Shown: piece by piece, positions 1,905 to 52,857 of the stretch | Position numbering within the stretch: the first letter of the stretch is position 1 | Layout of the letters: each line of letters opens with the position of its first letter | DNA from: Carcharhinus longimanus | Lineage: Eukaryota | Reading direction: 5' to 3' | Assembly: GCA_030264375.1 (NCBI GenBank) | Contig: JASCQW010000146.1 | Span: 21,386,290-21,450,289, forward strand | Length of the DNA: 64,000 nt | Program-made: the position numbers and the translations under genes | Notes under the pieces: generated by a model | The model's database searches: none | Told to the model about the DNA's origin: nothing | Seen by the model: only the letters and a program-made list of their open reading frames with translations

Positions 1905-2032
1905 AATATTGAAGATGCTGGAAATCTGAAATAAAAGCAGAAAATCGTTTGGAAAAACTCAGCAGATCTGGCAGAGTCTGTGGAGAGAGAAACAGAGTTA
2001 ACGTTTCGAGTCTGTATGACTCTTCTTCAGAC
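1905..2032 (-). mobile_element. Penelope-like terminal repeat fragment with minimal hammerhead core
   Basis: Minus strand 2030-1997 reads CTGAAGA-A-GAGTC-ataca-GACTC-GAAA-CGTT-AAC: hammerhead boxes, perfect 5-bp helix II and a palindromic ACGT in place of helix III. Confidence 0.7.
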
Positions 2033-2045
2033 ATGTACACCAGTG

Positions 2046-2367
2046 GGGGCAGCACAGTAGTTAGCACTGCTGCTTCACAGTTCCAGGGACCTGGGTTCGA
2101 TTCTGGCTCAGGTCACTGTCTGTGTGGAGCTTGCACGTTCTCCTCATGTCTGCGTGGGTTTCCTTCGGGTGCTCCAGTTTCCTTCCCCACTCCAAAGATG
2201 TGCAGGTTAGGTTGATTGGCCATGCTAACATTGCCCCTCAGTGTCCTAAGATGCTTAGGTTAGAGGGATTAGTGGGTAACATCTGTAGGGATAGGGCCTG
2301 GGTGGGGTAGTGGTCGGTGCAGACTCGATGACCGAAGGGCCTCTTTCTGCACTGTAGGGTTCTATGG
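2046..2367 (+). mobile_element. HE1-type V-SINE, CR1-like tail (type A)
   Basis: tRNA-like head (GTTAGCACTGCTGC..GGGTTCGATTC), V-domain TGTCTGCGTGGGTTTCC, tail CTGCACTGTAGGGTTCTATG. Confidence 0.85.
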
Positions 2368-3411
2368 AATTCTCCAGCTGTTCATGCCCGTAGGATCTTC
2401 TTGACCCTCCCCTCATTTGCCACTACTCTCCACTCATTTTGAGTTTCAGGTTACCCTGTCAGTNNNNNNNNNNNNNNNNNNNNNNNNNNNNNNNNNNNNN
2501 NNNNNNNNNNNNNNNNNNNNNNNNNNNNNNNNNNNNNNNNNNNNNNNNNNNNNNNNNNNNNNNNNNNNNNNNNNNNNNNNNNNNNNNNNNNNNNNNNNNN
2601 NNNNNNNNNNNNNNNNNNNNNNNNNNNNNNNNNNNNNNNNNNNNNNNNNNNNNNNNNNNNNNNNNNNNNNNNNNNNNNNNNNNNNNNNNNNNNNNNNNNN
2701 NNNNNNNNNNNNNNNNNNNNNNNNNNNNNNNNNNNNNNNNNNNNNNNNNNNNNNNNNNNNNNNNNNNNNNNNNNNNNNNNNNNNNNNNNNNNNNNNNNNN
2801 NNNNNNNNNNNNNNNGGAGTTAGCTCTACCTTGCCGCTTGCCACCACTGCACTTGCAACCACCCACCACCACCTCCCCCCCACCCCCACCACATGAATTG
2901 TGACAGAATTATAGAAACCAATATCAAGGTAAGTATGCAAAGATCCTGTTACATCTGATACCCACCTTGATTTGATTTGCATAATAACACAGGCTGTAAG
3001 TTCTTTCCCTAAGGCCTCAAACCTTACAGGCAGCTGCTAGAGCTGTTTAAGTTGTTCCAAGAACTTACTGTTCCAATGGCGATGCTATATTCATGAAAAG
3101 ACTGCTGTTTGACTAACTCCATCGCTTCTGTCGTGCTCTGCTCACCTCTTGAACTCTGCTGGTTTCCTCCGGTGCTTTTACACCACCTTCGATCGTGTGA
3201 AATCAGTTCCATGAAGAATCAAGTAAACCCTGAATATATTTGCACATCCCCAGTCAACAAGAAAAAAAAATCTGTTAGTGCCATGTAACAGCTCAAACTC
3301 CCCCACCCCCCACTTCCCTCCTCCCACCCCCAAAACTTGATCTGGTATTCACAGCTTGACAACAGCTTCGGCAAGCAGACCGAGGCCATGAAACATGTGT
3401 CTGTATTCATT

Positions 3412-3468
3412 GTAAAAAGTCTGACAACACCAGGTTTTAGTCCAACCTACTAAAACCTGGTGTTGTCG
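3412..3468. repeat. 57-bp hairpin insertion related to the Penelope-like terminus, with 13-bp flanking direct repeat
   Basis: Perfect 19-bp stem GACAACACCAGGTTTTAGT / ACTAAAACCTGGTGTTGTC with 7-nt loop. GTCTGTATTCATT occurs at 3399-3411 and 3469-3481. Confidence 0.85.
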
Positions 3469-3502
3469 GTCTGTATTCATTACCATGGGCACCTTAGCAT
3501 GG

Positions 3503-3955
3503 TAAGAAGTCTGACGACACCAGGTTTAAATCCAACCGATTTATTTGATAGTAAACTCGCGAGCTTTCGGGGTTTGCCCCTTCGTGAGGCGAATGGAGAG
3601 GCCTGACGAAGGGGCAAACCCTGAAAGCTTGCGAGTTTACTATCAAATAAATCGGTTGGACTTAAACCTGGCGTTGTCAGACTTCTTAGTTGCGAGGGCA
3701 CTCGGGTCGCGTTTTTTTTTTCACCTACTATAAATTNNNNNNNNNNNNNNNNNNNNNNNNNNNNNNNNNNNNNNNNNNNNNNNNNNNNNNNNNNNNNNNN
3801 NNNNNNNNNNNNNNNNNNNNNNNNNNNNNNNNNNNNAGGTGTTGACGTGATCGGCGCAACTCGTGGGCCGAAGGGCCTGTTTGTGCTGTAGTGTTCTATG
3901 TTCTATGTTCTTACTGTGTTTACCCCAGTCCAACGCCGGCATCTGCACATCATCT
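3503..3955. mobile_element. Penelope-derived fold-back element (palindrome 3503-3688, tail ~3908-3955) interrupted by a CR1-type 3' end
   Basis: About 88-bp inverted arms. + strand core CTGACGA(3603)-A-GGGG-caaa-CCCT-GAAA(3623)-GCTT. Tail ACCCCAGTCCAACGCCGGCATC is shared with the copies at 51001 and ~52826. Confidence 0.75.
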
Positions 3956-4164
3956 TAGCATGTCCAGATTCAGCAACAAGGTCACTGATTCTGGTAAATA
4001 GACACCACCATATTCGCATGACAGTTTTGAAGCGGCAAAGTGTTCAGAAAATCACAGTATTTAAGGTTCTGTTTAAAGAAAAGTTAGATTATGATTCACT
4101 TGTCTAATTTTTCAGAGCCCTGATTGTGCTTATTTCATTGGTACTACTGACTAAAAGCATATTC

Positions 4165-5085
4165 GCCTCATTGAAGGCCTTCGTGAGAGGATTTGAGTAC
4201 AGGAATAGAGATGTTTTACTGCAATTGTACAGGGCATTGGTGAGGCCACAGCTAGAGTATTGTGTGCAGTTTTGATTTCCTTATCTGAGGAATGATGTCC
4301 TTGCCATAGAGGGAGTGCAGAGGAGGTTTACCAGGCTGATTCCGGGATGGCAGGTCTGTCGTATGAGAAGGCACTAAGTTAATTACAATTATCTTCATTG
4401 GAGCTTGGAAGAGTGAGAGGGGATATCATAGAAACTTATAAAATTCTAACAGGGTTAAACAGTGTAGGTTCAGAATGTTCTCGATGGTATGGGAGTACAG
4501 AACTAGGGACCATAATTTAAGGATAAGGTATAAACCTTTCAGGACTGAGCTTAGGAGAAATATCTTCACCCAGAGAGTGGTGTATCTGTGGAATTCACTA
4601 TCACAGAAAGTAGTTGAGGCCAAAACATTGTGTGATTTCAAGAAGAAATTAGATATAGCTCTTNNNNNNNNNNNNNNNNNNNNNNNNNNNNNNNNNNNNN
4701 NNNNNNNNNNNNNNNNNNNNNNNNNNNNNNNNNNNNNNNNNNNNNNNNNNNNNNNNNNNNNNNNNNNNNNNNNNNNNNNNNNNNNNNNNNNNNNNNNNNN
4801 NNNNNNNNNNNNNNNNNNNNNNNNNNNNNNNNNNNNNNNNNNNNNNNNNNNNNNNNNNNNNNNNNNNNNNNNNNNNNNNNNNNNNNCTCCCACAGAAAGT
4901 AGTTGAGGCCAAAACATTGTGTGATTTCAAGAAGAAATTAGATATAGCTCTTGGGGCTAAAGGGATCAAGGGAAATGAGAGAAGAGGGGTATTAAGATAT
5001 TGGATTTGATGATCAGCCATGATCATCAGTGATGATGATAATGAATGGTGGAGCAGGCTCGAGGGGCTGAATGGCCTACTGTTGC
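4165..5085 (+). mobile_element. CR1/HER1-type LINE 3' fragment (RT C-terminus and 3' UTR), gapped
   Basis: LYRALVRPQLEYCVQF, RTRDHNLRI...FRTELRRNIFTQRVVYLWNSL, tail GGGGCTGAATGGCCTACT. Confidence 0.9.
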
Positions 5086-5689
5086 TGTTTTGTTTGCCTC
5101 CAGAGGGTTAGAATCAAATACTCTTTCACAAGTCAATTGTGCTGCTGAAGGAAAATCCAGACACATCATTTATGGAGGACTAAATTCTGTCCCCTTACCC
5201 CACCCCAGACCAGCAAATAGTTTTAACAACGTGTACCTTTGATGGTATAACAATCACAGATGACAATCTGTTACCTGTCACCCCCTGTCAACAGGAAACG
5301 TTATAATTGTTATTGCTGTTTTTTCTTTCCGCACCCAGCAATGCACGAGGCAGACTTCCATCTGCTTTCATAGCAAGTTTTTTTTCCTGGAACAGGTTGT
5401 TAGTCTGTCACTAGAGGCTTATAGCTTGAGGAGTGCCATTCCACATCCAAGAATGGCTGGCCAGGAGAGTCTCCCACTCTTATTGCTTGCTGTTGGCCTG
5501 TTGGAAAGATTTTGTGGGTTAATACTCAATCTGCTGGCCACGTTATTCCTTGGCCATCAGGTCCTGGGATGGAACTCGAACCCAGATCTTCTGCCTCAGA
5601 GACAGTGACACTACCCACTGCAGCACAAGACCTCCTCCAAACTTATAATAGCATGGCATTAAAATTCATACTAGTAGCTGAAAGCAGTT

Positions 5690-5994
5690 GGCATGGTGGC
5701 ACAATGGTTAGCACTGCTGCCTCACAGACCAGGGACCCAGATTCAATTCTGGCTTTGGATCACTGTCTGTGTGGAATTTGCACATTCTCCCCATGTCCGA
5801 GTGAGCTTCCTCCAAGTGATCCGGTTTCCTCCCACAGTCCAAAAACATGTGAGTTAGGCTGATTGATCATGCTAAATTACCTCTTAGTGTCAGGGGACTA
5901 GCTAGGGATCATTGGGATAGGGTCTTTGTAGGATTGTGGTCGATGTAGCCTCAACGGGCCAAATGGCCTCTTGCACTGTCAGGATTCTATGATT
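5690..5994 (+). mobile_element. V-SINE type A
   Basis: Same head, core and GGCCAAATGGCCTC...GATTCTATGATT tail. Confidence 0.85.
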
Positions 5995-6394
5995 AATTAT
6001 TGTGATCTTGGACAAATAACTATATATATCCAATTCACCAAATGACTTGGTGTTGATCTTATATTGTAGCTGATAACTGTCACAATGTGAGAATGCTAAG
6101 TAACACAGGCAGCGCTGCAAAACAGGCTGAACTCAAATATTTTATTAGGGGGCTGCAGACTGGCTAATGATGGGAGGTCAGATTGTTTCCATTGCTGAAA
6201 ACTGAGGCAAATGCTCGAAGTTTGTTCTGTTGCCATTCCTTTGTTGCTAAAGGTGATGATACTTGCTAAAGTACTGTAGCATTACGTCAGATCATCACCC
6301 TTCATCTCAGAGCCTAAATAAAGAATATCTGCGCCTTATTTATCCTTGAAGGCTACAATAATCACAGTGTAATCTTATACAAATATAAACTTAT

Positions 6395-8158
6395 TCAAAT
6401 ACGTATATTCATTAGAAAAAATTTCAGCAGGCACCATTCAATTGAAATCAGCAACAGAAGCCTACCTTTCCTTTTCCCATTCCCCAGTTTTATTGCCCCC
6501 ATTCCATCCCAGTTGAAATCCAATAAATTAAACTGGAATAGGATGTGGAACCTTCCTACTGTGTGAGGTTCAAAGATCACACATGGGGTGCACTTACTGA
6601 GTGATCAGTATTGTGGTAATAATCAATCATAGAATCACAGAATCCCTACTGTGCAGAAAGAGGCCATTTGGTCCTTTGAGAATGCACCAACAACAATCCC
6701 AGCCAGGCCCTATCCAAACCCTATCCCCATAACCCCTCGTATTTACCCTGCTAATTTCCCTTACACTAAGGGGCAATTGAGCATGGCCAAACAACCTAAC
6801 CCGCACATCTTTGGACTGTGGGAGGAAACCAGAGCAGCGGGGGGAAACCCATGCAGACATGGGAAAAATGTGCAAACTCCATACAGCCACCCGAGTCCAG
6901 AATTGAACCCAGGTCCTTGGTGCTGTNNNNNNNNNNNNNNNNNNNNNNNNNNNNNNNNNNNNNNNNNNNNNNNNNNNNNNNNNNNNNNNNNNNNNNNNNN
7001 NNNNNNNNNNNNNNNNNNNNNNNNNNTGAGGCAGCAGTGCCAACCACTGTGCCACCGTACCACCCATTATCCATAATAATAATGATCCATTATAAATAAT
7101 ATTTAGAATATGGCTATTATCTTATGAAATCTGCACTTTAGTTAGGCAGGATATTTATTTTGTAAGGTATTGAGCTTGATTGCTAAATCCTTGGCAGTGA
7201 ATGAGGTGTTACATAATAGAGAGCACGATATTTGATAGTAGAAAGGGATTTGTTAATGTGTCGTGCTGATTAAAGACGTGGGGATAGATGTTATTCTTGG
7301 TGAATGGCAGAATTTTTCAGACACTAAGTAGCAGCACAGTGCGTTCTACTTTCCATCTGGCCTTAAACATTCATAAGAATGCAATGTTGCGAACTAAGAT
7401 ACAATAATGAGATACATCAAGCGTTCATCTGATGACAAAGATAAGCACAGAGGAATGAAATAAATTAATTATAAAGTGTCTAGAGACATATACAAGAAGG
7501 ATATAGGGAAAAACTTAATTGCAGTGAAACTGTACAATTGTTCCTTATATTTTCCCCCTTTTTTGTAGAAGACTAAATTGTTGCTAGCTAAAACCCTCTT
7601 CTCCATAAGAAATGGTTTATTCATACTGCCTAAAATTAAGTCTGTTACCTCCCATTCTGACATTTTCTACTCTCTGTTATTATAAACTTTGAAATTAAGA
7701 TGGAAGCTTTAAGATCAGACACCAGCAGCATATTTTATCATCTAGTTTTGTCATTTTTTTTTCTTAAAGTTACTGAGCTTATAAGTATGTCTGTGAACAT
7801 GTCTATTCTTGATTTCTACTCATTGGGCAAAATTTAGTGGAGTGGGCAAGATGGTGGGTGGACTCAGAGAATCACATGAGAGATGGTGAATCTGACTCCT
7901 GGCAGTGGTAATATTGTCCCAAAGAAGTGTGTGATTATTGCCACAATATTGATCACTCAGTAAGTGCACCTCATGTGTGATCTTTGAGCCTCACACAGCA
8001 GGTTCCACATTCTCCTCCAGTTTAATTCATTGGATTTCAACTAGGGTGGAATGGGGTCAATAAAACTGGGGAATGGGAAAAGGAGAGGTAGACTTCCATT
8101 GCTGATTTCAATTGAATGGTGCCTGCTGAAATTTTTTCAAATGAATATACGTATATGA
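6395..8158. repeat. ~230-bp inverted duplication (6395-6625 vs 7932-8158)
   Basis: ATACGTATATTCATT.GAAAAAATTTCAGCAGGCACCATTCAATTGAAATCAGCAA... and its reverse complement, high identity by eye. Confidence 0.9.
6626..7065 (-). mobile_element. V-SINE type A containing an N gap
   Basis: Reverse complement of the same consensus. Confidence 0.85.
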
Positions 8159-8949
8159 CATATGTATGAGAAGTATGTGGCTGATGTGGGAAAGTTGCCC
8201 ACTTGAGAGTCAGTTAGGCTTATTAGGGCACCATTTAAATTCAATTATCAGTAAACCCATTGGGATTTAATGCTGAATGAGCAATTAAATAATTAACAAC
8301 TGGGTCTCCTGTGCCTCCAGAACTTCACTGAGAAAACCCTGTCAGGTTTGCACATGACCAACAATGGAGGGCACTCAGTGCCTGATTGAAGGGCCGACAT
8401 TGGGAGAGGAGGTGCCCAGTGAAAGCCACTCTTTTGCTCTTGCTTCTAACCCCTCTCTGCCCACTTTTTTGGTGGCCCCTCCCCTTCCCCTGCCCTGTCA
8501 TGTCTCTAGCCCTCTCTATTTACCTCACACCAACAACAGGCAATGTTCCTGGTGATACTGTCCGCACTAATTAGAGAACTGTTAGCCTATGATTGCCTGA
8601 CGGCTCTGGGGAGTGGGATTTCCACTCTCCTGATAGGAGGCCTGGCCCTGTTCAGGTAAGGCCCTGGTTGCCTGGTAATTGCAGTGGGCCTCCTGGGGGA
8701 AAAAAAAATCAATGTGGGGTTTTCACCAGTTCCCCAACAGGTGGGCAAGATTCCAATCGCCAACATCAAATTCCACCCAAAATATTAGCAGTAAGATGGT
8801 CTCTGACAAAGGAAAACCAGGGCTAGAATTTTATGTTCCCTGTCCTGGAAGGTTCTGAGGCTAAGAGAGGGTATTGGGTAGCATGGGGGGTGTGAAATTG
8901 CAGAGGCCTGAATTTTTACCTCATCGGGCAAACGCAATTGGCCAAGCCA

Positions 8950-10420
8950 GAAGCCGATGTAAAATTTGGGTCCCTCATCCATCAGCTCCTGATGAAACTT
9001 TGACAAGGCAGAGCAAATGGAGACATATCTGCAATGCAGAGACAAGATAACCCTCAAAGATGGGGTGCTATTGTTGCAGATTGTACCGCCCTTGGGGCAA
9101 CAGCCTCAGCTCCAAGATTTACATGATGCCCATCCAGGTCAGAGCAGAATGAAAACGGAGGCCAGAAATTACATCTGATGGGCCTGTCATTGACAGAGAA
9201 ATTGCACAAATGATCGGGCAGTGCCAGCAAAAGTTACCAACACTATTGAACATGCACCCTGGGAGTAGCCGGGTTGTCTGTGACCACAGCTTCATGTAGA
9301 TTTTGCTGGACTATTTTTGTTCCTGACCATCATAGGTGCCCGTTCCAAGCGGCTGAACATTTAGCTAATGAGGTCCACCACAGTTACGTCTACAGTTGAG
9401 AAGCTGAAGCAGATCTTTGCGATCCATGGTCTTCACAGAGTGTTGGTGTCAGGCAATGGAACTGCATTCACAGCTGACAAATTTCAGACTTTCATCAAGT
9501 TAGATCATTCAGCATTCATCATGTTGGATCAGCCCTTTACCAACTGGCCTCAAATGGTTGGCAGAATGAGCCATGTAGACATTCAAGGCTTCCATGAAGC
9601 AGCAGGTTCATTGGCTTTTACCATTGTGATTGTCAAATTTTTGCTGTCCTACAACACTACATCTCAGACCAACACTGGGGTCACGCCTGCAAAATTGGTA
9701 ATGGGCTGGCACTTGCATACTTGTTTGGACTTAATTTCCCAAATTTGTAACACTGAAGGCCAGGCAAGCCTCTCAGAAAGGGAACAGGTCATTTAATGTG
9801 GAATTTTAGTGGCAGATCTGCTTGGTTACCAGGGAAAATTGTGGAGAAGACAGGGCCAGTCTTGTATGTGGTGGAGACACAGGGCTGTCGAGTAAAGAGG
9901 TATGTCAACCACTGACGCAAGAGAGTCAAGCCAGCTACAGGAGCCAAGTAAGTGTGCCCCACGTCCAGTTTGTATCAATCTCTGAAACAGAGATTCCAGT
10001 GCCAGTGATGGGGCCAAGGCTGCCCCTGGCTTCAGTGGCTGAGGCAGAGGAAGGGGCTGGCAAGGGCCTAGTTCCTGAGGAGATTAGCACGTCTGTTCCA
10101 TCAGTGGATCCTATGTCATGACTTGTTCCTCCCTGGTCTCCCTCCTGTAATATTGTTGTTTGCCTGCCTTTGTGTAACTGTTTTACTTTTAGTTTCAACA
10201 TAGGTAGTCCAAGATGTTGGGGGGAAGGAGTGTGGTCCCACTGGGCGATCATTTGCAGGGCCATGTGATCGCGCCAGAGCCAGTGGAGTGCAAGCATGCA
10301 AACCTGGGCCTGTCAGGAGTGAGGGCGTGCTTCCCTGGGGCTGGAAGGCTTCTGTTGGAGTAAAGGCATTGTTAGTAGACCTGCACAGTTGTGTCCTTAA
10401 ACCCATCATTGTATATCATT
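8950..10420 (+). mobile_element. Second Gypsy remnant: integrase region, polypurine tract and probable 3' LTR
   Basis: HPGQSRMKTEARNY, HVDFAG and STVEKLKQIFAIHGL...YNTTSQTNTGVTPAKLVMG. GGGGGGAAGGAG at 10219-10230 followed by TGTGG at 10231. Confidence 0.8.
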
Positions 10421-11040
10421 CTTCTTATTCAATAAATTCTTTAATTTGTTACTTGCCACATCGAGTAGCCTCAAGTTACCACAGTGGCTGAACTATTGGA
10501 AGCCATTTAGAGGGAAGTAGAAGTGTGCAAATGAGGACAGAAACATAAAGAAGCTCTCCAGATGCTTGGTATCTTTTTTGCATTTGAATTAAGAAAATAT
10601 TAATCACTTGTCTGTGTTTACCAAGCACATTGTTCAGTTTAAATAGTCTCTTTGTTAAATAGCCTCTCAAACTGCTATTGTTTTATCATTTTCACAATCC
10701 TGTAGTAATACCTTCATTTTTTTGCTTTTATTTTCATATTAAGTGATTCATGCTCTCAGCTTACATCAAGGGCCTTTCTAAAGTGATGTTCATAGCACTG
10801 ACTGCAGACAGTTACAGTGAGTAATGATGATGAACAGCTCACTGCCCCTTGGGATAATCTGGTGCAGCCTTTCGATTTGATTTTTTTAAAAATTCATTCA
10901 TGGGTCATGGGCATCACTAGCTGGCCAACATTTATCGCCCATCTTCTAGTTGCCCTTGGAGGTCATTTGAGAGTCAACCACACTGCTGTGGATCTGGAGT
11001 CACAAGTAGGTCAGACCAGGTAAGGACGACAGATTTCCTT

Positions 11041-11290
11041 GATTATGCTGGTTGCTTTTCCAAAGCTGTGGGACGTGTAGACAGAGTCAGTGAGAGAAGG
11101 CTGATTTGAGTGATGGACTAGGCTATATTCATGACCGTTTATAGTTTCTTGTGGTCTCGGACAGAACAGGAGTCATACCAAGCTGTGATACAACCAGAAT
11201 GAATGCTTTCTATGGTGCATCTGTAAAAGTTGCTGAGAGTCATAGCGGGCATGTCAAATTTCCTTGGCCTCCTGAGAAAGTAGGAGCTGA
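11041..11290 (-). mobile_element. Rex1/Babar internal fragment
   Basis: YFLRRPRKFDMPAMTLSNFYRCTIESIHSGCITAWYDSCS. Confidence 0.8.
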
Positions 11291-13787
11291 GACATGTAAG
11301 CGTAACAGAGGAGAAACAACCTTTGAAATTTAAGGATTCAAGGGGAAAAAAATGATGCATTGCCACGGAGGACATTGGCTGGGCTGGTATTCCTGAAAAA
11401 ATCACTGGAGAAACAGAAATTTGAGAATATGGACATCATTGGACCATTGTTGTTCAGACCAACCTGGAAAGACTCAGAATGGACTTTGACCAGGTCTCAC
11501 CCATGCTGGAGCAATTAGTGATACTTTCAAATAATCATGGAACCTAGTTTTAGGCAAAATAAACACAAGTGCATAGGCTCCATGATAAGCCTAAACACAG
11601 AATTCCATGTGTGAAAACAACTTTGGATTTTTTTTATTCATGGGAAATGGGCGTCACTGGCTGGCCAGCATTTATTGTCCATCCATAATTACCCTTGAAA
11701 CTGAGTGGCTTGCTAGGCCATTTCTGAGGACAGTTGAGAGTCAACCATATTGCTGTGGCTGTGGAGCCACATGTAGGCCAGACCGGGGTAAGAATGGCAG
11801 ATTTCCTTCCCTAAAGGATATTAGTGAACCAAATGGGTTTTTCTGACAATTGTTAACGCGGCTATTAGAGCTCCGAACTAAAGGAATTTTTGCTTCTCAC
11901 AAACTCGATGCATCAAACATCAAGGACCCCGGACATTCTCTCTTCCAGCTTCTTCCATCAGGAAAAAGATACACAAGTCTAAGGACACATACATGACTTT
12001 TTTTCCATTGGCAAGTGCACATCAGACAATAGTGAACTGCAAAAACAGAAGGTGAAATTTTCCATGAATTGCTGGCTGAAGTGTAAGAATGCAGTTCACA
12101 GACCACAGAGCCAGCTTTTCTCACTGTATTTTGCAGCACTCTGCACTGAAATAATCTCCCTGCATGGCCCATGCCACCACACTGACAGAACAGAGCCGAA
12201 CAGAGTGGGCAGAGATAAGGGTGCCCTCTTCCAATTTGCGATTTCAAAAAATACACCCCACGCGCCCCCCCCACCCACAGATAAGAGGAATCTGCTCCCC
12301 ACATTCAGAAAGGTAATTTTCCCCCCCCTCAACCCCGCAGCCCCCCACCATGGGTAAGGAGAACTCCCCATGTGNNNNNNNNNNNNNNNNNNNNNNNNNN
12401 NNNNNNNNNNNNNNNNNNNNNNNNNNNNNNNNNNNNNNNNNNNNNNNNNNNNNNNNNNNNNNNNNNNNNNNNNNNNNNNNNNNNNNNNNNNNNNNNNNNN
12501 NNNNNNNNNNNNNNNNNNNNNNNNNNNNNNNNNNNNNNNNNNNNNNNNNNNNNNNNNNNNNNNNNNNNNNNNNNNNNNNNNNNNNNNNNNNNNNNNNNNN
12601 NNNNNNNNNCTCTCACACTCATGGAGAACACGGGTGCTAAATCACCACCAGGGAATGCTGGAAAATCTCAACCGGTCTGGCAATAGCTGTAAGGAGAGAA
12701 AACAAAGCTAACGGGTGGGCTTTTATGGCTTCACTTGTCCCAAAACCACAAAAGTCCTGCCCAAAGTCAACAGACCTTCCCATTGTCTGCCCCTCACCTG
12801 CTCCGATCCCCGTGGCGGGTGGGGTGGTAAAATTCTGGTGAACATCTTGAGTCCATATTTCTCCTCTTCTGAACTAAAAGAGAGGGAGGAATGCTTATGT
12901 TTCAAATTCCAGTATTTTGCTTTTAGAATAATGAATTGCATTAACTTGTTACTGTCAACATGGGATACAGAACAGACAAATACTCAGATAAAACAGCAGG
13001 AAGATATAGAAATGATGTTTTTTGTTAAACTGTTTTTGCTATTAATGCTACTTTGTCCTTGTCCTCCTCTAGAATTGAATTGGAGTTTCTTCCTGGTGAT
13101 ATGAATGATTTTAATATTTTACATTGAGTGATTAGCTGTTAGATACTTCATCATGTACAATTCTGGCTGTTGCACCTCAAAGAACTTTCAGTTGCATTGC
13201 GTCGATTTTAATTCAAGCAGGATGCTCATTACAGCACCATGGACCTTAACTCCCACACAACATTTTTACAGCAAGATTTGATGGTACATGGTTTTATTCC
13301 ATCTTACTCTATGATCAAGTGATTAAATTGCTTGTAACTTCTGTCACCAGATTGTCATATCTTATCAACTTGTATAGCTGACATAGCTCCCTGAAATAGC
13401 TACTGTGATGCCATATAAAACAGTACTGTTGAATGGGGAAAGTATTGCATAGATTTTCTCAGAGGCACATTGAAAAGGGTCAGTTGAGATCTGTCAAAGC
13501 AGATAAGACACTTTGTCAACATGTGTGAGTTTTGATAACTGTGTAAATGGATCTGTGTGATCAATTGTATCCATAGTTGAAATGGTTATGACGATTAGTT
13601 AAGGAAGTGATTGTGTTTTGTAGCAGAATTGTTTTAAGAACTGAATGATTATCAGCCATGTTTGAGTAGCCACCTGTTCTTTGACAAGACATAATTGAGA
13701 CCCAGTCTGCATTGGCATCTTAAAAATACTGGCCAGAATTCTCTGATCTTGCCCACAGCTGGGATTATCCAGTCCCGCTACTATGAA

Positions 13788-22845: not shown

Positions 22846-22961
22846 ACATACCAGCAGCTCCCGTCAATGTCACAATCCGACATCTGCAGGCCAACTCAGC
22901 AGTGGTATCATGGGAGGTTCCTGATGGAGATTCTGTTATTGGCTATGTTATATCACAGCAG
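22846..22961 (+). CDS. FNDC5: FNDC5 coding exon A (N-terminal half of FNIII/irisin domain), 116 bp, phase 1 to 0
   Basis: Acceptor ttcctccaattatAG at 22844-45, donor CAG|GTATTA at 22962. Encodes (D)IPAAPVNVTIRHLQANSAVVSWEVPDGDSVIGYVISQQ, matching recalled vertebrate FNDC5 DSPSAPVNVTVRHLKANSAVVSW...IGFAISQQ. NVT glycosylation sequon retained. Confidence 0.95.
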
Positions 22962-28410: not shown

Positions 28411-28603
28411 AAAAAGGATGTGCGAATGCTACGCCTTATCCAGGAAGTGAATACCACAACCCGTTCCTGTGTACTGTGGGATTTGGAGGAGAACACCGAG
28501 TACATTGTCCACGTCCAGTCAATTGGTCTGAGCGGTGTGAGCCCTGTGAGTGACGCTATCTCCTTCCGGACCCCAAAAGAAGCTGAGAAATCGGCCTCAA
28601 AAG
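28411..28603 (+). CDS. FNDC5: FNDC5 coding exon B (C-terminal half of FNIII/irisin domain), 193 bp, phase 0 to 1
   Basis: Acceptor ttttattcccAG at 28409-10, donor AAG|GTAACA at 28604. Encodes KKDVRMLRLIQEVNTTTRSCVLWDLEENTEYIVHVQSIGLSGVSPVSDAISFRTPKEAEKSASK, diagnostic of FNDC5. A weaker in-frame donor 6 nt downstream is possible. Confidence 0.95.
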
Positions 28604-28749
28604 GTAACAGTAGACCCAAGCGCTTTAATAGAATGGCTTCATGATCAAAACACGATGTGGATACTGGCTGCATCCTGTAACTGAATATTATAATTCTAAG
28701 TAAGCTGCAAAGATTTTTAATGTTGTTCTGTTTGTGTGATTATTGTTGA

Positions 28750-33135: not shown

Positions 33136-33171
33136 TACTGGAAAAAGGAGGGGTGGGGGAGGGTTGGAGAT

Positions 33172-36709: not shown

Positions 36710-36719
36710 GCATTTCTGA

Positions 36720-43420: not shown

Positions 43421-43542
43421 TACATTTTTTAAAAATCCCAGGCTAAGTTGACAGATAGTTTGTCAGCAGTTAGTTTACTAATTGACTCCTAATTGTATCC
43501 AATGTCCCTCACTGATTGAACTGTTTGATCTTTATCTTACAG

Positions 43543-43635
43543 ATGAGGTGACAGCAGAGACACTGCAGGAACGTAACGCACAGTTAAGGATGGGCGAGAT
43601 GATCATTATTGTGGTTGTTCTAGTTATGTGGGCAG
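43543..43635 (+). CDS. FNDC5: FNDC5 coding exon C (juxtamembrane linker and most of TM helix), 93 bp, phase 1 to 1
   Basis: Acceptor tttatcttacAG at 43541-42, donor CAG|GTGAGT at 43636. Encodes (D)EVTAETLQERNAQLRMGEMIIIVVVLVMWA(G). Confidence 0.95.
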
Positions 43636-45649
43636 GTGAGTGTTTGCTCTGCATTTGTTTTCTTCTTGTGTTATGGCAAGCTTTTGGTAAACACCAAGCT
43701 GCCCAAGTGCTAAAGGAAAACTTGAAACAGTTACCAAAATGTTTTTAGCAATTTGTGTAGTATGAGGAGATGTTCTGAACTCAAGAAATGATATTCCCGT
43801 CTACTTATGATGATTTTATTGTAAAGTAAATGTTCACTGAGAAAGAGAACAAATCAGAATTATACAGAAACACGAAAATGGCTTCACACCTTAAACACTA
43901 ATTTAAAATGGTTCCAAAAGGTACTAATTTAACTACCCTTGGAGCAAGCCTTCCCTGTTTCTGTTCAGCAACTATCCTTATATATTTTATAATCTAAGAA
44001 TTCTACTATTTTTTTACCACACAGTACCTTTGTTTCTTTTGGGATATCCTGCTCTGAGACTGACAGCAGCTGGTTCTTCAGGTTTGGCTTTGTTCACACA
44101 GTTTTCTGGGAGTTCTGACCAGTTAGCTACTGTTTTCTAGGAGGTCGAAACAGCTAGCCTATCACATAGACTTCAGTATTTCCTTAAATTTGTTCTTTCC
44201 CTTTGATGTCTCTATTGTCTAATCTTTAGAAATGCTTTCTTCCCAGAATTGATTCAATACATTTCCTTACTTTAGCTCTCAGGATGAAAAATGAAGTTAC
44301 CTTTACTTTGCATATTTACACTTTTCTTTTACCACGTATCTACCTGCCTTTGAACCAAAATAACCCATTCAAAACAACTCCTGTTATTGTCTTGTGTAGA
44401 ATCCTGATTGAAATACCTCCTGATTCATTAACTGATCAAAACCACTTCTTACTATTATATTAGACTCTTTCTACCATCCTGTCTGTTACTCCAATTACCA
44501 TAATCACAATCCCCCCAACAGCCTGCCTCCCTGTATGTAAGGAATATGACTGTAATACTAAGCAAAAGAAAAATATTACAATTTATTTTCTTGACACTTG
44601 GAACTTGCTGATTTTTTTTCTGGCTTACCCTGCTGTTCAGACTGACAAGGTGAGAAGCTGTTGTACAAATTGGAAAAAAAGAACTTAGGGAATGTCACAA
44701 ATAATGCTGCAAAATCACTTCATTCAGTATTTAACAGGCTTTTGTCATCTAATCAAGAAATATCAATACTTTGTGTATTAAATGTACGTCATAAACTTTT
44801 GTCATCTAGGAGTGAACTCTGACAATTAACAAATTCTTTATGTTTAGTGAGTTGCATCATTATTATTAGATGGTTATAAGATTCCACTGATAGCCCCCCT
44901 TTTCATTACTGTGGCTACTTAATTTAACATCCCCATTTCCCACCTCATTCCTACTCCCTCTCTGAGCCAAAATCTTTATCTATTCCATTGTCATCTCTAA
45001 GTTTTAATTCTGAAATGTTCTCCTTGTCAGTCCTCCACGATACCCTTTTACCTTCAGTATGGCCAAAATTCTACATCACCACTTACAAGTCCTGTACCGT
45101 CCCCCATCAATCCCGTCCTCACCAACCTTTGGATGTCTCAAACATTCTGAATTCACAATTCTCATCCTCTCCAGCATCTCTCCACACCCTAATTTCATGT
45201 TCTATACTGTTCCCCCAAAACCTTGTCTTCATCAGCTTTCACCCTATTTGTAGAACCTTCTCCAAGCCTATAGACCAACGTACTTCCAGTGCTGCGAAAT
45301 TCAGGACAAGAGATGCAAAGAAGGTCAATCTCTGAATTTTGGCAGAACCTCAAATAGTCTCGTCCCTATCTTCTGGAACTCTCTCCCTAAACTCATTCAC
45401 CTTTTTACCTTTTTCTATATCTTCAAAAGTCTCCTCAATATCTCTACCAATGCATTCCTTTGCCTTATCTAATTCTTTTTCACCTACTACCTATCCCACA
45501 TCTCTGAAATGCATTGGGACATTTACATTACAGGGGCCAATACAGGGGATGGTAAATTGTGACAAGTGTGTGACAGAACGCTAACCTTTTCCATCACATC
45601 ACTGGTGCTAATGGTCCAGGCGTATAATTCTAGGTTTCCTGATTATTAG

Positions 45650-46376
45650 ATTATTATCTAAATGGAGAGAGATGGCAGGTGAATGAAGTACAGAGGGTTC
45701 AAGATATTCTACTGCATGAATCACAAAAGGCTAGCATGCAGGTCCAACAAGTAGTTAAGAAGACAAATGGCCTTTATTGCAAAGGGGTTGGAGTTTAAAA
45801 ATAGGGAGGCTTTGCTGCAATTGTACAGGGTGTTGGTGAGGCTGAAACCTGGAATACTGTGCATAGTTTTGGTCTGCTTACCTAAAAAAGGATATAGTAA
45901 CATTGGAAGCAGTTCAAAGGAGATTAATTCCTGGGATGAGAGATTAGTCCTATCAACAGAAACTAATTAGCCTGAGTCTGTATTGCGTGGACTTTAGAAG
46001 AGTGAGGGGTAAACATATAAAATCCTGAGGGGGCTTGACAGGATAGATGATGAGATGTTTATATTAGAGGAGAGTCTCGAGCAAGGGAACATAGCTACAA
46101 AATAAAGGCTGTTCATTTAAAACTAAGATCATAGAAATTTTTTCTCGCAGAGGACAGTGAATCTCTGGAATTATCTGCCCCAAAGAGTGATGGAGATTAA
46201 ATCATTAGAGGTATCCAAAGTGGAGGTAGATAAATATTTTATAGATTGAGGAATAGAGGGCTTTGGGGAAATGGCACAGGAGTTGAGGCTGGTCTAGGTT
46301 AGCCATGATTACATTGAATGATGGGACAGGCTTGATGGGCCTGATGGCCTACTCTTGCTTTGATTTCTTGTGTTCT
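45650..46376 (+). mobile_element. CR1-type LINE 3' fragment
   Basis: AFIAKGLEFKNREALLQLYRVLVR and tail GGGCCTGATGGCCTACTCTTGCT. Confidence 0.85.
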
Positions 46377-46466
46377 GCTTTTATTTAGATGTCAATTTTT
46401 TTTCTATCTCTTGGACAGCTTCTGTCCATTAGCCAGTACATGTTCAGAAGGCACTGACTCAATGTT

Positions 46467-47157
46467 GAGTTGAAATTTTCCAAGTTTATTGGGAACCCTT
46501 TGCTGGGACCATATCTGGGTCCCCAGTCCACCCATTTTGAATTTTACAATCTGACAGGCAGTTCCCAATTGATAACTCCCCTCTATAAATGGTGCACATT
46601 AGGCACAGCAGACAGCCCATGAATGCAAGAGGACCAATTGAAGGGGTTGGCTGTAAGCATCACTAAGAAAAGTGGGTGCCGCTTAAGAAGCTGAAAAAGA
46701 GTGTGAGGGTGCCACAAAATGGAGGTGCTCACCTAAAGATCCAAACAGCATCCCTATAAATGGTGAGGGGAACAATCTTGCAGATCAGAGTGAAGGTAAA
46801 ACTGCTCCAAAATGCCTGCAGATGTGCTGCTTGCTGCCTTTCTGATTTTTTTATAAATGAATCTGCAAGATCAAACAATACCACTCCAACCTCCACTTGT
46901 AGTGTCACCTCTGATGCATTGCCAGGGAACCAGTAAGCCATTGGTAAAATGTCATTGCAGTGTCAGAAAAAGGAACTAATTGTTCTTTTAAATTCATTAA
47001 TTGTTCACTGTTAGCAGCCATTGCCGCTGGACACCTGCCTCCAGGAAAAGCGCACGGAGGCAGTGACGCCTTGGGGAACTGACCTAGCACTCCGTGTTCT
47101 AAATTTTCGTGCACCTCCTTCAAAGCCAACCCTTCGGGGCTTGGAAAATTCCAGACA
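46467..47157. mobile_element. Probable non-autonomous TIR DNA element
   Basis: Termini GTTGAAATTTTCCAAG and CTTGGAAAATTCCAGAC resemble each other and the MITE TIRs. Confidence 0.4.
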
Positions 47158-47626
47158 ATGTTGCAGACAGAATGACAATAGCATTTGTGAATCAAGTTAA
47201 CCAGCTTTATTTTCATTAATGTGGTCAATTAAACTTGATGTAGCAGGCTGAATGAGGTGCCCCCCTAACTTCCTTCCTGCCTTTGTCCGTGTGAGTCATA
47301 AAAAACAGCCTTCCCATTCCCACCTGACTACCCACACCAGCCGTATTATGGCATGGGAAGAGTATTATTCCTATTAATAGGCTTGCGAACAAGCTGAATT
47401 AACCTTTAAGTATTTATTTATATATATGGTGGGTGGAACTTTGATTTCAGCACCTAGCCAAAATGAGGGTGAGCTCAAGTGGTGGGCTAACCACCCAACA
47501 TATTTTATGTGACCCCCAACTCGACTACTCCAACACGAAAAATATCATTGGTGGGTTCATGTAAAATCTAACCCAATGTGTTAAATGAAGGTGGAGTGCC
47601 AATTTTCCTAACCTCTCCTAGGGAGG

Positions 47627-47877
47627 CCGTGTGGATTCTGCATGTTCTCCCCATGTCTGCATGGGTTTCCACCAGGTGCTCTGGCTTCTTCCCATAGTCC
47701 AAACATGTGTGGGCTAGGTTGATTAGCCATGCTAAATTGCCCCTTAGTGTCAGGGGCATTTGCAGGATAAATACATGGAGTTACAGGGATAGGGCCTAAG
47801 TGGGATTGTTGTCGGTGCAAATTTGATGGGCTGAATGGCCTCCTTCTGCCCTGCAGGAATGCTAAGATTCTATGATT
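47627..47877 (+). mobile_element. V-SINE type A, 5' truncated
   Basis: Starts at the V-domain GTGTGGATTCTGCATGTTCTCCCC. Confidence 0.8.
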
Positions 47878-48268
47878 CCTGTCATCCTATTTGAAATGTA
47901 GTGAAGAGACTCCAATCTAGCTGTTAAAAATGTCCTGAGATGCTGTCTTGGACTCTAGGTGTGGGACATGGTTAGTAGGCAGGCCAGACATACTCTGGTA
48001 TGTTTAACACATGTTTATTAATACTATATCTCAGCAGGTTAGAGAGTATGCATGTTTTTGTTCTAGGCAACCTCTCTATCTCTCTCAGAGACAGAGAATC
48101 TAAAACTTGACTGACTGATGTCAGTAACACATCATCATTATGTCATGCATTAGAATATCCCATCACTTTAACCCTTTATTGCTCAAAACGTGATAAATCA
48201 TAAACTTTAGTGACTAACATTGTATAAAATGAATTATGTGGACTGAATGATGTAGTTCCTACATTAAT

Positions 48269-48553
48269 GGGGGTAGCATAGTGGTTACCACTGGTGCCTC
48301 ACAGCGCCAGGGACCTGAGTTCGATTCTTGACTTAGGTCACTGTCTGTGCGGGGACAATATGTTCTCCCCATGTCTGCATGGATTTCCTCCGGGTGCTCC
48401 AGTTTCCTCCCACAGTCCGAAAGACATTCAGGTTTGGTGCATTGGCCGTGCTAAATTCTCTTTCAGGCGCTGGAGTGTGGCAACTAGGGGATTTTCAAGT
48501 AAATTCAGTGCAGTGTTAATGTAAGCTTATTTGTGACACTAATAAACAAACTT
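48269..48553 (+). mobile_element. V-SINE type B
   Basis: Same type B tail. Confidence 0.8.
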
Positions 48554-48995
48554 GAAAATTTAAATGTACTGACAATATAAAGTAGAATATCAAATCCATG
48601 GAACCAGACAGATTTCATTTTATAATGGGATGTTACAGAGACAAGGGAGGAAAACCATTTCAGCAATTTTGTGAAGAATGTGCAATTATAATTTTATTTT
48701 TGCATGGTTATCTATGATTCAACAGCCATCTGCAGAACTCTTAAAAGAGCACATCACCTCAGTTATGTTGAAGCAGTGACAAAGCAAAATGTGGCTTTGC
48801 TGTAACAAACAATAAAACTTAAACATATTTATATAAAACCTTTCTTGACCTCTTAATGTCCCTAAGTACTTTACAGCCAATGCTATCTTTTGGGGATGCT
48901 GTCACTATAATGTAGGAAAGGTAGTAACCAATTTACAGACAGCAAACTCTGACTTAAGATCCAGTTAACGAGAAGAAGTTTCTCAGAAATATTTT

Positions 48996-49130
48996 GGGGC
49001 CAGAATCTTACGGCCATTCATGCCGGCAAGATTTATCCATCCCACTGCAGGGAGCGGAGATTTGGCTGGGTGTCAAATACTCCGACTTTGCTGTAGCAAT
49101 TGTGGCGTGAAAGGCCGGTAAGGTCGTGCC
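48996..49130. mobile_element. MITE with GGGCCAGAATCTTACGGCC / GGCCGGTAAGGTCGTGCC termini
   Basis: Imperfect TIRs, ~135 bp. Confidence 0.55.
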
Positions 49131-49870
49131 TTAAATGTTGTTTCTTCAGCAAGGTAGGTGATGTTAATTTACAGCACCCTGTGTACTACAGAGGCCATAA
49201 TGTGAATCTCACCAGTCAGGGGAGGGGCGGACTCTCAGCTCACCTGGTAGCCTGCTGCTGAGCACCATTACGCAGGCGTCCTGATCTTCCAGTAGACTGT
49301 GTCCTTTGTGTACACAGTACACTGGGAGACCTGACACTCCATCCCCTGCCCACCCATCCCGCCCCCCAACCTTCCTGGGCAGAATGGGGGCAGCAAGATC
49401 ACAAGAGGCAAGAAATTGGGTGCGAACCAAATTTTTTGCCTCTCACCCTGTCTCACGGACTCACCATTGCAGGTCGCTCATTGTGGTAAGATCCCACCCA
49501 AGGTGTTTAGTGATGAGACTGGGATAAATCCTCTGTTCTTCTTTGAGATAGTGCCATGGGACTTTCACATCCACTTGAGAAGGCAGATGAGCTACGGTTA
49601 AAATTCTTATCTGAAAGACGGCACCTCCAGCAGTTCAGCTTTCCCTCGGTGCTGCACTGATGCATCAGCCTAGATTTTGTGCTCAAGGTTCTGGAGTGGG
49701 ACTTAAATCCTGAAACCTTTGAGTATTTGAGAACAGACAAAAATGACTAATTGATGTGGTAACCAAACGGCAAAGAATTCTGCTGATAATGCCACGCTCA
49801 TTGAATATTCAGTGACTTGTAGCTCTATTGGTTTCTTGGGATGTGTTCCCAGTGTGGTTTTATTATGCAT

Positions 49871-50586
49871 AGTAAGAAGTCTCACAACACCTGGTTCAAG
49901 TCCAACAGATTTGTTTGGTATTATGAATTTTCGAAGCACTCTCCTTCATCAGGTGAATGATGAAGGAGCAGTGCTGCAAAAGCTCGTGATACCAAANNNN
50001 NNNNNNNNNNNNNNNNNNNNNNNNNNNNNNNNNNNNNNNNNNNNNNNNNNNNNNNNNNNNNNNNNNNNNNNNNNNNNNNNNNNNNNNNNNNNNNNNNNNN
50101 NNNNNNNNNNNNNNNNNNNNNNNNNNNNNNNNNNNNNNNNNNNNNNNNNNNNNNNNNNNNNNNNNNNNNNNNNNNNNNNNNNNNNNNNNNNNNNNNNNNN
50201 NNNNNNNNNNNNNNNNNNNNNNNNNNNNNNNNNNNNNNNNNNNNNNNNNNNNNNNNNNNNNNNNNNNNNNNNNNNNNNNNNNNNNNNNNNNNNNNNNNNN
50301 NNNNNNNNNNNNNNNNNNNNNNNNNNNNNNNNNNNNNNNNNNNNNNNNNNNNNNNNNNNNNNNNNNNNNNNNNNNNNNNNNNNNNNNNNNNNNNNNNNNN
50401 NNNNNNNNNNNNNNNNNNNNNNNNNNNNNNNNNNNNNNNNNNNNNNNNNNNNNNNNNNNNNNNNNNNNNNNNNNNNNNNNNNNNNNNNNNNNNNNNNNNN
50501 NNNNNNNNNNNNNNNNNNNNNNNNNNNNNNNNNNNNNNNNNNNNNNNNNNNNNNNNNNNNNNNNNNNNNNNNNNNCTCCACAACAT
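49871..50586. mobile_element. Penelope-derived fold-back element, mostly in an N gap
   Basis: AGTAAGAAGTCTCACAACACC...CTCCTTCATCAGGTGA/ATGATGAAGGAGCAG...; CTCCACAACAT after the gap resembles the family tail. Confidence 0.7.
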
Positions 50587-50638
50587 TGTTATTCATATGC
50601 ATTGCTACTTATTGAACTCCTTCTCATCTGTTTGCCAG

Positions 50639-50772
50639 GTGTGATAGCCTTATTTTGTAGGCAATATGACATCATCAAAGACAATGAACCGAACAATAAT
50701 AAGGACAAAGCCAAGAGTTCTTCAGAGTACAGCACACCAGAGCACCCAACAGGAGGACTACTACGCAGCAAG
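50639..50772 (+). CDS. FNDC5: FNDC5 coding exon D (end of TM and cytoplasmic tail), 134 bp, phase 1 to 0
   Basis: Acceptor tctgtttgccAG at 50637-38, donor AAG|GTAAGA at 50773. Encodes (G)VIALFCRQYDIIKDNEPNNNKDKAKSSSEYSTPEHPTGGLLRSK. Confidence 0.95.
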
Positions 50773-50827
50773 GTAAGAGAAATTATTGGCTAATGTACAA
50801 GCAAAATCTAAGTATGTCTAAACTCTA

Positions 50828-51033
50828 TAAGAAGTCTCACAACATCAGGTTAAAGTCCAACAGGTTTATTTGGTAGCACAAGCTTTCAGAGCATTGCCCT
50901 TCCATCAAGTGACTCCACTCACCTGATGAAGGGGCAGCGCTCCGGAAGCTCGTGCTACCAAATAAACCTGTTGGACTATAACCTGGTGTTGTGAGACTTC
51001 ACCCCAGTCTAACACCAGCATCTCCACATCATG
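50828..51033. mobile_element. Penelope-derived fold-back element with two opposed, mutated hammerhead cores
   Basis: About 82-bp inverted arms over 50831-51000 with loop CTCCAC at 50913-18. CAC-CTGATGA(50923)-A-GGGGC-agc-GCTCC-GGAA-GCTC-GTG. Tail at 51001-51033. Confidence 0.8.
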
Positions 51034-51445
51034 TTTAAACTTGGTAATACACAGTGGCAAAAAAGCCATATGAACAGCTGAATGTACAATTAGTATCAAT
51101 GTGTATCGTGAAATTGTGAGTTTCTAACAAATTGCATTTATCAGGAAGTAATTCATGTTAGAATTGGATATAAAGTCAGGCTACTTTTGCTTGAATGTTT
51201 TATTCATTTAGCCCTGAGTTGAATGTCAATTGGTTCTCCAGTACCTTAAACAAATGGACTCTTTATTTCATTATTATGGTACCAGCTTCGACAGATTGTC
51301 TCTGTGGGCATATGTGTGTCTCTGCCATTGCTGGCTCCTTACTCTCTTATTTGCCTCCTGTTGAGCCCTGTATTAGAGCAATTGCAATGCCTATGGAGCT
51401 ACAGGGAGCATTCCTGCTCCTCTGCTTCCATGGGAAGGAGTTTCC

Positions 51446-51768
51446 ATAGAATAGAAGAATCCCGACAGTGCAGAAGGAGGGTGTTCGGCCCATTGAACCT
51501 GCACTGACAACAATCCCACCCAGGTGCTATCCCCATAACCCTACATATTTACCCTGCTAGTCCTTCTGACACTAAGGGGCAATTTAGCATAGCCAATCAA
51601 CCTAACCTGCACATCTTTGGATTGTGGGAGGAAACAGGGGGCATCTGGAGGAAACCCACATATACAAGGGGAGAATGTGCAAACTCCGCATAGTGACCCA
51701 AGACTGGAATTGAAGCCACGTACCTGGCACTGTAAGACAGCAGTGCTAAGCATTGGGCCACCATGCCA
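51446..51768 (-). mobile_element. V-SINE type A
   Basis: Full-length consensus match. Confidence 0.85.
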
Positions 51769-52707
51769 TCAAAGGAAACAATACTTTTCAATGAATGAGA
51801 CAACCCTAATGTTTCAAATGACTTGTCTCACTGTAACATTAATCACTTTACCATCACACCAATGAGTAAGTTTAATGAAGATGTCTTGAGGCTGACAATA
51901 AACAATATGATAGCTTGCACTGCTTTCAATCAATAAACCACTCTGCAGCTTGCAATGAATAACTTGAAAGCAGATGAGTTCAATAAACCCTTGAACAGAA
52001 TTATAAGAACAGCTGATGCTATCTAGAGCCGCTTCTAGTATCTCTGAGTGTACAGAATACTGTCTGTGCTTGATCAGTCGAGGTTAAGAATACTACATTT
52101 TCAGGTCAATATAAAATTTAAAATAAATATTCATGAATTGTTCACATTGTTATTTTGTCCAGTTACTCTTATTGGTGATATTGGATTGAACATCCACTAT
52201 GGTGAGAATAAGGAGGTGACACAGAAGTCAACTCTGTCAGACCTCATTCTGTTTACAAGACCTTCTCCGAGCTTTTGCATTTTCCTCTGGCTTCTCCTCT
52301 GTTGCACTTCCTTTAACACTCAATGTCCCACTACCCCCTCACCAGCTGCACCCTCCAAATTGCTCAGTTTCTCTTCATTTCCATGATGGATTCAGCTCCT
52401 CCATTGAAACATGGTACCTGCTCCCTCAACCCAACACCAGCCAGCTTCTGAGCAATCAATTTTCCTTTCTTAACCCCATACTTACTGATTATTCCTACTC
52501 CTTTTAAAAGCAGCACCATTACTTACCTTCTGAAAAGCCTATCCCTCACTCACTAACCTGAAAAAAGTCAACAGACAGGTCCAAATTTCTTTGCTTATTT
52601 TCATCCTGGCTGGAGTTCTGTCCTCCACAAACATGAGCCAATGAGTCTGAGGTCAGCCTTAGGGGTCAGTTAAATATTTTTGACTCTGTAGCCTCAACCA
52701 AAGATAC

Positions 52708-52857
52708 AGTAAGAAGTCTCACAACACCAGGTTAAAGTTCAACAGATTTATTTGGAAGCTTTCGGAACACTGCTCCTTCACCAGGTGACTTCATCTGGTG
52801 TTGTGAGACTTCTTACTCTGTCCATCCCAGTCTAACGCCGGTATCTCCATACCATGG
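52708..52857. mobile_element. Penelope-derived fold-back element with internal deletion
   Basis: AGTAAGAAGTCTCACAACACCAG...CTGGTGTTGTGAGACTTCTTACT plus the family tail. Confidence 0.75.

Follow-up and report, generated by a model that had tools for sequence, protein, structure and literature searches.

Published descriptions of Penelope-like elements (PLEs) report minimal type I hammerhead ribozymes with constant core boxes, an extra base between A9 and G10.1, a G10.1-C11.1 pair and a palindromic 15.2-16.2 pair without helix III, dispersed as thousands of truncated copies that fall into several covarying families per genome. In PLEs that bear an endonuclease (EN+ PLEs), the insertion unit, as described for Pen2a_Av and related elements (PMC3846280, PMC8557442), consists of a direct pseudo-long terminal repeat (pLTR), an inverted 5'-truncated copy, a 30-40-bp tail and a target-site duplication (TSD). 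For the anole Poseidon element PAc, studied in vitro (Frangieh et al. 2024, PMC11167929), the reported reaction initiates at two internal sites that bound the tail and extends both strands; uncleaved RNA is the main template and the hammerhead is protein-assisted. How PLEs form their inverted repeats and tails, and what the hammerhead does in vivo, are presented as open questions in the relevant parts of PMC8557442, PMC4209133 and PMC11167929. Here we consider three hammerhead motifs, a, b and c, in a 64,000-nt stretch of the genome of the shark Carcharhinus longimanus (contig JASCQW010000146.1, positions 21,386,290 to 21,450,289; hereafter the window) that contains part of FNDC5. Their identity as PLE stubs is close to certain. 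We also consider it probable that they are minimal hammerheads in the pLTRs of two endonuclease-bearing PLE families, carried by 5'-truncated and likely inactive stubs, and that b and c arose from uncleaved RNA copied from both sides of a staggered cut.

The motifs are present exactly as the initial annotation, made from the sequence alone, had written them. Hammerhead a runs on the minus strand from C3, the first base of the core, at 2030 to 1997; b occupies 3601-3632 on the plus strand, with C3 at 3603 and the predicted cut after 3630; c occupies 50920-50954 on the plus strand, with C3 at 50923 and GGAA at 50944-50947. A strict pattern that requires the core, the extra base, a helix II of 4 bp, G[AG]AA, the palindromic pair and UH matches the whole window four times, at a, b, c and a minus-strand site at 49952; in 200 Markov controls it averaged 0.01 matches and reached 1 at most. 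The core CUGANGA...GAAA...UH is exact in a, in b and in the family majority and differs by A13G in c, while the palindromic remnants claimed for helix III are AGCU in b and c and ACGU in a. With the extra base and the reverse transcriptase (RT)/GIY-YIG link described below, these features bear out the assignment to the PLE minimal type I class; helix II, at 4-6 bp, differs from that of the published PLE hammerheads, whose description does not name sharks in its relevant parts. An Rfam scan of the window gave no hammerhead family match, even at an E value of 10; its best match, MIR7696 (27.5 bits, cut-off 83), was rejected and merely reflects the hairpin of another copy, element d.

The initial annotation overlooked the surroundings of b and c: each motif sits in one arm of a 170-190-bp head-to-head palindrome, with one hammerhead per strand, a tail and a TSD. 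The palindrome of element b measures 186 bp (3503-3688), with arms 89% complementary. Its inverted arm (3503-3591, minus strand) holds a second hammerhead (mirror motif at about 3557-3591, C3 at 3588) that carries G5C, and its direct arm (3598-3688, plus strand) holds hammerhead b, an AATAAA and downstream pLTR sequence. The pLTR end and tail of the same element, 97.8% identical to the corresponding stretch at another locus (L047), follow at 3908-3953 on the plus strand, beyond an unrelated, partly N-gapped insert at 3689-3907 that ends in a short tandem repeat and is apparently younger, because it interrupts the pLTR inside the flanking duplication. This 9-bp duplication (3494-3502 and 3954-3962, plus strand) encloses the element. 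Element c, whose palindrome measures 173 bp, likewise has a tail and is bordered on both sides by a duplication of about 10 bp; its inverted arm (50828-50912, minus strand) has a decayed hammerhead (C3U, A9G; mirror motif at about 50876-50912), and its direct arm (50914-51032, plus strand) has hammerhead c, an AATAAA, the pLTR and the tail. The layout is that of the EN+ PLE insertion unit as published. It differs from the published descriptions in that most inserts here are stubs of 100-200 bp without an open reading frame (ORF), whose ends we count relative to the ribozyme, and in that the dual motifs on opposite strands, there 100-700 bp apart, lie only 5-32 nt apart in a sample of double-hammerhead palindromes (the first 50 of 637, collected with a pattern that allowed a spacer of at most 30 nt).

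Where at least three Penelope lineages had been proposed, comparison of the sequences gives two families, one with several subfamilies: b and c are subfamilies of one, and a belongs to the second. Elements b and c are 70-74% identical over 185 nt and share their downstream pLTR sequence, b-type arms join the same 3' region as other copies of the b/c family, and a and c give no alignment longer than 12 nt; the endonucleases of the two families are 33% identical over 99 residues. The Penelope link on which the annotation had staked its reading was found in a genome search for GIY-YIG domains (115 matches, 30 loci examined), which placed the b/c pLTR at 5 of the 30 loci and the family-a pLTR at 9, with both at L047; L052 has an additional, unlinked family-a match. 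At L040, L049, L052 and L055 the hammerhead comes after the ORF and shares its strand, and in five of six loci tested the family-a pLTR lies 332-394 nt downstream of the end of the GIY-YIG ORF. Locus L173 is a near-full, frameshifted b/c copy with the order hammerhead–RT–GIY-YIG–hammerhead: an inverted stub is followed by a partial direct copy with hammerhead and tail, by an ORF that gives a tblastn match to residues 4-880 of an RT-EN homologue, and by the second hammerhead. In the b/c family the order is a TATA-like box (C3-35/-36), the hammerhead, AATAAA, a 30-40-nt tail and the ATG of an ORF for RT, a Cys-rich linker and GIY-YIG, and the tail runs into the start codon at four loci (L085, L090, L137 and L309). 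The ATG thus stands at the tail end, about 100 nt past the cut site, whereas the PAc ORF is described as starting inside the hammerhead (PMC11167929).

The b/c family is abundant, with 28,265 first-look candidates for its endonuclease in the genome and two exact 32-nt tail variants that occur 2193 and 729 times. Among named proteins, the closest is from a shark (77% identity); the GIY-YIG domain was found as PF01541, and homologues carry the RT domain PF00078. Family a likewise has a GIY-YIG domain, together with a 28% match over residues 411-842 at L054 only. In both families a CxxxxCxxC linker precedes GIY-YIG, a feature described for Neptune-type elements (PMC3846280, PMC8557442) that makes a place in the Neptune clade plausible, with Nematis as a possible alternative; a TATA-like box and an initiator-like sequence in the pLTR are further likenesses to published EN+ PLEs. 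Four small contigs (L031, L032, L039 and L046) hold other GIY-YIG/RT elements with different minimal hammerheads, three of them with open frames of 463-770 codons; these may be additional PLE families or another organism's sequence.

How the stubs formed can be read from 121 tail-anchored b/c inserts, of which 1 is broken off by the end of the reference and 85 are uncensored. They comprise sample A (91 tail matches from the first 90 of the 2193 places of one tail variant, all on one contig) and sample B (the first 30 of the 729 places of the other). An adjacent inverted arm is present in 51 of the 85 uncensored inserts; of 47 inverted arms, 38 terminate 28-48 nt before the 3' end and so leave out the tail; and a duplication of at least 8 nt flanks 43 of 65 testable inserts (9-14 nt), as against 0-3 in 20 shuffles. 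Arms range from about 30 bp to more than 1 kb, the longest reaching into the ORF, and either may be the longer, with the inverted arm extending further 5' in 26 of 51 inserts and the direct arm in 14. Junctions between the arms are diverse (23 length classes among the 50 palindromes). A single 9-nt junction, however, is shared by 56 loci that belong to several subfamilies, and it takes either orientation with respect to the tail. Individual loci add variants. The inverted arm at L181 is 1.1 kb long and extends into the ORF, the insert at L128 bears a tail at either end, and L070 has two neighbouring inserts that belong to different subfamilies. Two double-hammerhead junctions (G000:C122:38284107 and 38284284) are separated by 177 bp and could be a tandem of palindromes. 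At L052 (1200-1266 and 2004-2132) the two arms of one insert come from different subfamilies, with short and long spacers past the cut site, and could record a two-template event.

The 5' ends of these inserts, a subject that the relevant parts of PMC11167929 do not address for PAc, are not spread evenly. In sample A, ends per 100 nt traversed number 3.04 in a hot window from C3+9 to C3-20 and 0.67 on both sides; in the independent sample B the corresponding rates are 3.28 and, on the two sides, 1.09 and 0.72 (p 0.006 each). Across all 121 copies this amounts to a roughly 4-fold pile-up immediately in front of the ribozyme and some 30 nt past the TATA-like box. The pile-up survives worst-case censoring. 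Failure of the upstream reference sequence was considered as its cause and is unlikely: wherever that upstream sequence is present, it aligns in long, short and b-type copies alike, and some 5' ends abut their duplication. The cut site, in contrast, shows no excess within 3 nt on either side (5 ends in 619 nt, a rate of 0.81 like that of its neighbours, p 0.62). Within the 50 palindromes, 36 of 100 arm ends fall at -6/-7 and 3 lie beyond -11, with one more arm probably under-measured. The TATA-like box stands at -35/-36 from C3 in 31 of 39 b/c loci and at -34/-35 in 7 of 12 family-a loci, and general promoter spacing from such a box would place the start of transcription near C3-6. Contigs from the four public runs X1, X2, X3 and X5, consulted for RNA evidence, yielded neither starts nor ends. 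The pile-up at the front of the ribozyme and the lack of an excess at the cut site together suggest that the inserts likely derive from uncleaved RNA copied to its start.

We posit the following insertion mechanism, which as a whole we regard as reasonably probable. Transcription would start about 6 nt before C3; the element protein would bind the junction of leader and ORF, and reverse transcription would initiate internally at two sites one tail-length apart, so that both target strands are extended on uncleaved RNA, one from each side of a staggered cut in the DNA, much as reported for PAc. After some 100-135 nt each cDNA would reach the 5' end of the RNA, and the two cDNA ends would be joined head to head to give the palindrome. 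The recurrent 9-nt junction is what would be expected from the annealing of two cDNA ends that stop at -6. The ribozyme would be under selection in rare master elements, where it may cleave weakly as a dimer or with the help of protein, while the scattered copies would decay neutrally and, within a host transcript, fold as long hairpins rather than as ribozymes. More tentatively, the stub insertions could be a fossil map of PLE replication, in which each arm is the full-length cDNA of a ~135-nt mRNA leader, run off at an A six bases before the core; two such cDNAs would anneal by their last three bases, with the central mismatch repaired either way to give the 9-nt junction, and the hammerhead would act as a switch at the mRNA start that removes RNA from the template pool.

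Several observations weigh against copying of uncleaved RNA to a TATA-directed start. The bounds of the hot window were set on sample A once its ends had been inspected. The peak of tail-anchored ends extends broadly, from -17 to +6, and 15 of 44 hot-window ends fall at -12 to -17, further upstream than the predicted start. N gaps interrupt 35 of the 121 inserts. The arms agree in subfamily markers in 19 of the 21 palindromes, among the 50, that could be classified, which fits two RNAs from one source and equally one molecule or gene conversion, and deletion at the hairpin centre after insertion could yield both the arm asymmetry and the recurrent junction. Penelope of D. virilis is reported to have a TATA-less internal promoter (PMC2377424), and the TATA reading here is therefore only an analogy. 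As to the gaps themselves, they often start inside elements, and the best-preserved hairpins are probably under-assembled.

Two other routes to the same ends keep the PLE identity of the stubs. In the first, which we think unlikely, RT stalls or falls off just past a hammerhead that is folded, protein-bound or dimerised within a long transcript; it would account for the breadth of the peak and for the way both arms, despite starting points about 38 nt from one another, have the ribozyme edge as their landmark. A structural block should, however, stop RT at the 3' side of the fold or inside it, where ends are at or below background (0.45 per 100 nt at C3+10 to +24), and the conserved TATA spacing in two families is left without explanation. 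The second, rather improbable in our judgement, is self-priming fold-back on one molecule, possibly on an antisense template as proposed in PMC3846280, with later trimming of the hairpin centre. It sits well with the concordance of the arms, with the private variants common to both arms of b and with the commonest junction length, that of a hairpin with a 1-nt loop (8 of 50). Simple fold-back of a first cDNA does not predict that either arm may be the longer, nor would it lead one to expect that the 35 inserts in which no inverted arm was detected show the same pile-up (2.6 in the hot window, 0.63 and 0.41 beside it), and the anole protein is reported to extend both strands from two sites one tail apart (PMC11167929). 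Copying of uncleaved RNA from both sides of the cut remains our preferred explanation.

Covariation across copies was assessed in 256 pattern-collected arms of the b/c family, a few of them misparsed, and in 41 arms of family a. The claim that helix II covaries holds for the b/c family: pair 3 (mutual information 0.213) and pairs 2 and 4 (0.098 and 0.082) exceed column shuffles (p<=0.001), p values that overstate support in that the copies are related rather than independent, and different subfamilies use different stems and loops. The 41 family-a arms gave no convincing signal. The proposed switch in helix I did not extend to the family, as pairs 1, 2 and 4 show no covariation in the 256 arms (pair 2, p 0.17; pair 3 reaches p 0.049) and the G-C pair of b is found in 2 of 30 b-type arms, namely both arms of element b itself; this amounts to one compensatory event in its source element. 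The extra A between A9 and G10.1 is present in 241 of the 256 arms, and positions 10.1-11.1 are G-C in 163 and G-U in 71. Fully intact motifs account for 46 of the 256 arms and for 1 of the 41 in family a. The commonest losses in the b/c set, GAAA to AAAA (66 arms) and C11.1 to U (71), are CpG decays at essential positions, as expected under neutral decay.

The copies in the window carry lesions of this kind and are likely inert in place. Hammerhead b, singled out initially as keeping all core nucleotides in the FNDC5 sense orientation, does keep its catalytic boxes on that strand and is nevertheless not intact: it has a G10.1-U11.1 wobble, U17 and a helix I of just 2 bp. Where b has U11.1 and U17, its mirror arm carries C, which points to CpG decay in b. 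Hammerhead c was rightly suspected of being a point mutant, with G at 50945 where almost all family copies have A (four public runs), and hammerhead a is truncated 5', 1-2 nt before C3, so that helix I is gone. Folded in isolation, helix II of c forms (0.86), helix II of b barely does (0.09), and the helix pair probabilities of b are 0.09-0.32; folded in context, b and c both show a probability of 0.000 for all pairs of helices I and II. An 85-bp hairpin is predicted to sequester the b ribozyme completely, and c is likewise predicted to be hidden by its own palindrome. It is thus very improbable that b works as a ribozyme, or has been domesticated as one, and cleaves FNDC5 pre-mRNA, as its intact boxes and orientation might suggest, since the lesions and the predicted fold are joined by the absence of a nearby sense partner for a dimer (the mirror arm is antisense), by the published in vitro results, in which single minimal motifs did not cleave and dimers cleaved weakly (PMC4209133), and by the position of b, which is not placed within the FNDC5 transcript. 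Lesions in all three copies also argue against a domesticated intronic hammerhead of the amniote type, characterised by an intact motif conserved between orthologues (PMC6155905). That the palindromes are an independent mobile unit, MITE-like (miniature inverted-repeat transposable element) or retrozyme-like, copied whole, is scarcely credible for all the many similar-sized copies and the junction shared by 56 loci, given the otherwise diverse junctions, the wide range of arm lengths and the appearance of that junction in both orientations and several subfamilies.

Comparison with named classes of such units leads the same way. A MITE is ruled out by the one-sided tail, the variable arms and junctions and the homology to an RT element. 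Non-LTR retrozymes, as presented in bioRxiv 10.64898/2026.07.22.740005, are similar in being non-coding, hammerhead-bearing, PLE-derived dispersed monomers; they differ in forming head-to-tail tandem units each with a hammerhead, whereas the window copies are single or head to head. No tandem units were met among the window copies, the genome as a whole not having been screened for tandem arrays, and this identity was set aside.

Further insertions in the window belong to the same two families. The family-a stub that contains hammerhead a (5-bp helix II, ACGU palindrome, U17, 5' strand of helix I lost) spans approximately 1893-2031 on the minus strand, represents the 3' part of the pLTR truncated at C3-1 or -2, and has 83-90% matches at 39 other places; an additional degenerate family-a fragment (75% over 55 nt) lies at 12659-12713. 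In the b/c family, the window holds, besides the mirror arms of b and c, a 56-bp mini hairpin without hammerhead or tail (3413-3468), flanked by a 13-bp duplication and 35 bp from element b; element e (49873-49996), an asymmetric palindrome of the c subfamily whose minus-strand hammerhead has C3 at 49952 and whose right end lies in an N gap; and element d (52710-52855), which consists of an inverted arm with hammerhead (C3 at 52784, A6G), an internally deleted direct arm and a tail.

FNDC5 lies on the plus strand, as initially annotated: an exon at 28424-28610 encodes the irisin domain (match to PDB 4lsd, E 4.5e-23), and stretches at about 22846-22960, 43560-43650 and 50640-50773, with short FNDC5 motifs, are exon-like. 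Element c lies about 55 nt beyond a coding-exon donor, in the intron after the exon that ends near 50773, and element e lies in the preceding intron. Exon 1 was sought by motif and by a start-codon screen across 30 kb of upstream sequence and the window's first 23 kb (in part N) and was not found, and a and b are therefore not placed inside the FNDC5 transcript. Some sequences in the elements resemble processing signals. Read in antisense, the front edge of the c ribozyme (50917-50925, minus strand; family-wide) matches the consensus of a 5' splice donor, and an AATAAA is available on either strand of every full palindrome, with c setting one about 190 nt past the FNDC5 exon. Most family copies have GT after the scissile bond; 12 of 30 b-type arms show a perfect donor there, and b itself has GC. 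Downstream of that bond, at a distance of 67 or 73-74 nt, comes a pyrimidine-rich acceptor, 25 nt before the ATG (window 3631-3688, 3908-3928). Penelope of D. virilis has a 75-bp leader intron. A search for genomic copies spliced precisely from the cut site to the pre-tail acceptor found none, and two matches end elsewhere.

There is nothing unusual about these copies as ribozymes: the class, the variation within it and the PLE link were published in 2014. Titles and the beginnings of abstracts, with subscription journals, Repbase/Dfam and supplements outside the scope, revealed no paper on shark PLE hammerheads or on 5'-end clustering, and the supplements of PMC4209133 and of bioRxiv 10.64898/2026.07.22.740005, which includes one cartilaginous fish, may list these motifs. 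For genome annotation, the 170-190-bp palindromes should be recorded as PLE stubs, not as MITEs, microRNA precursors or active intronic ribozymes. Their mechanistic value is that the b/c family provides a countable record of PLE insertion, in which ends gather at the predicted start and not at the cut site.

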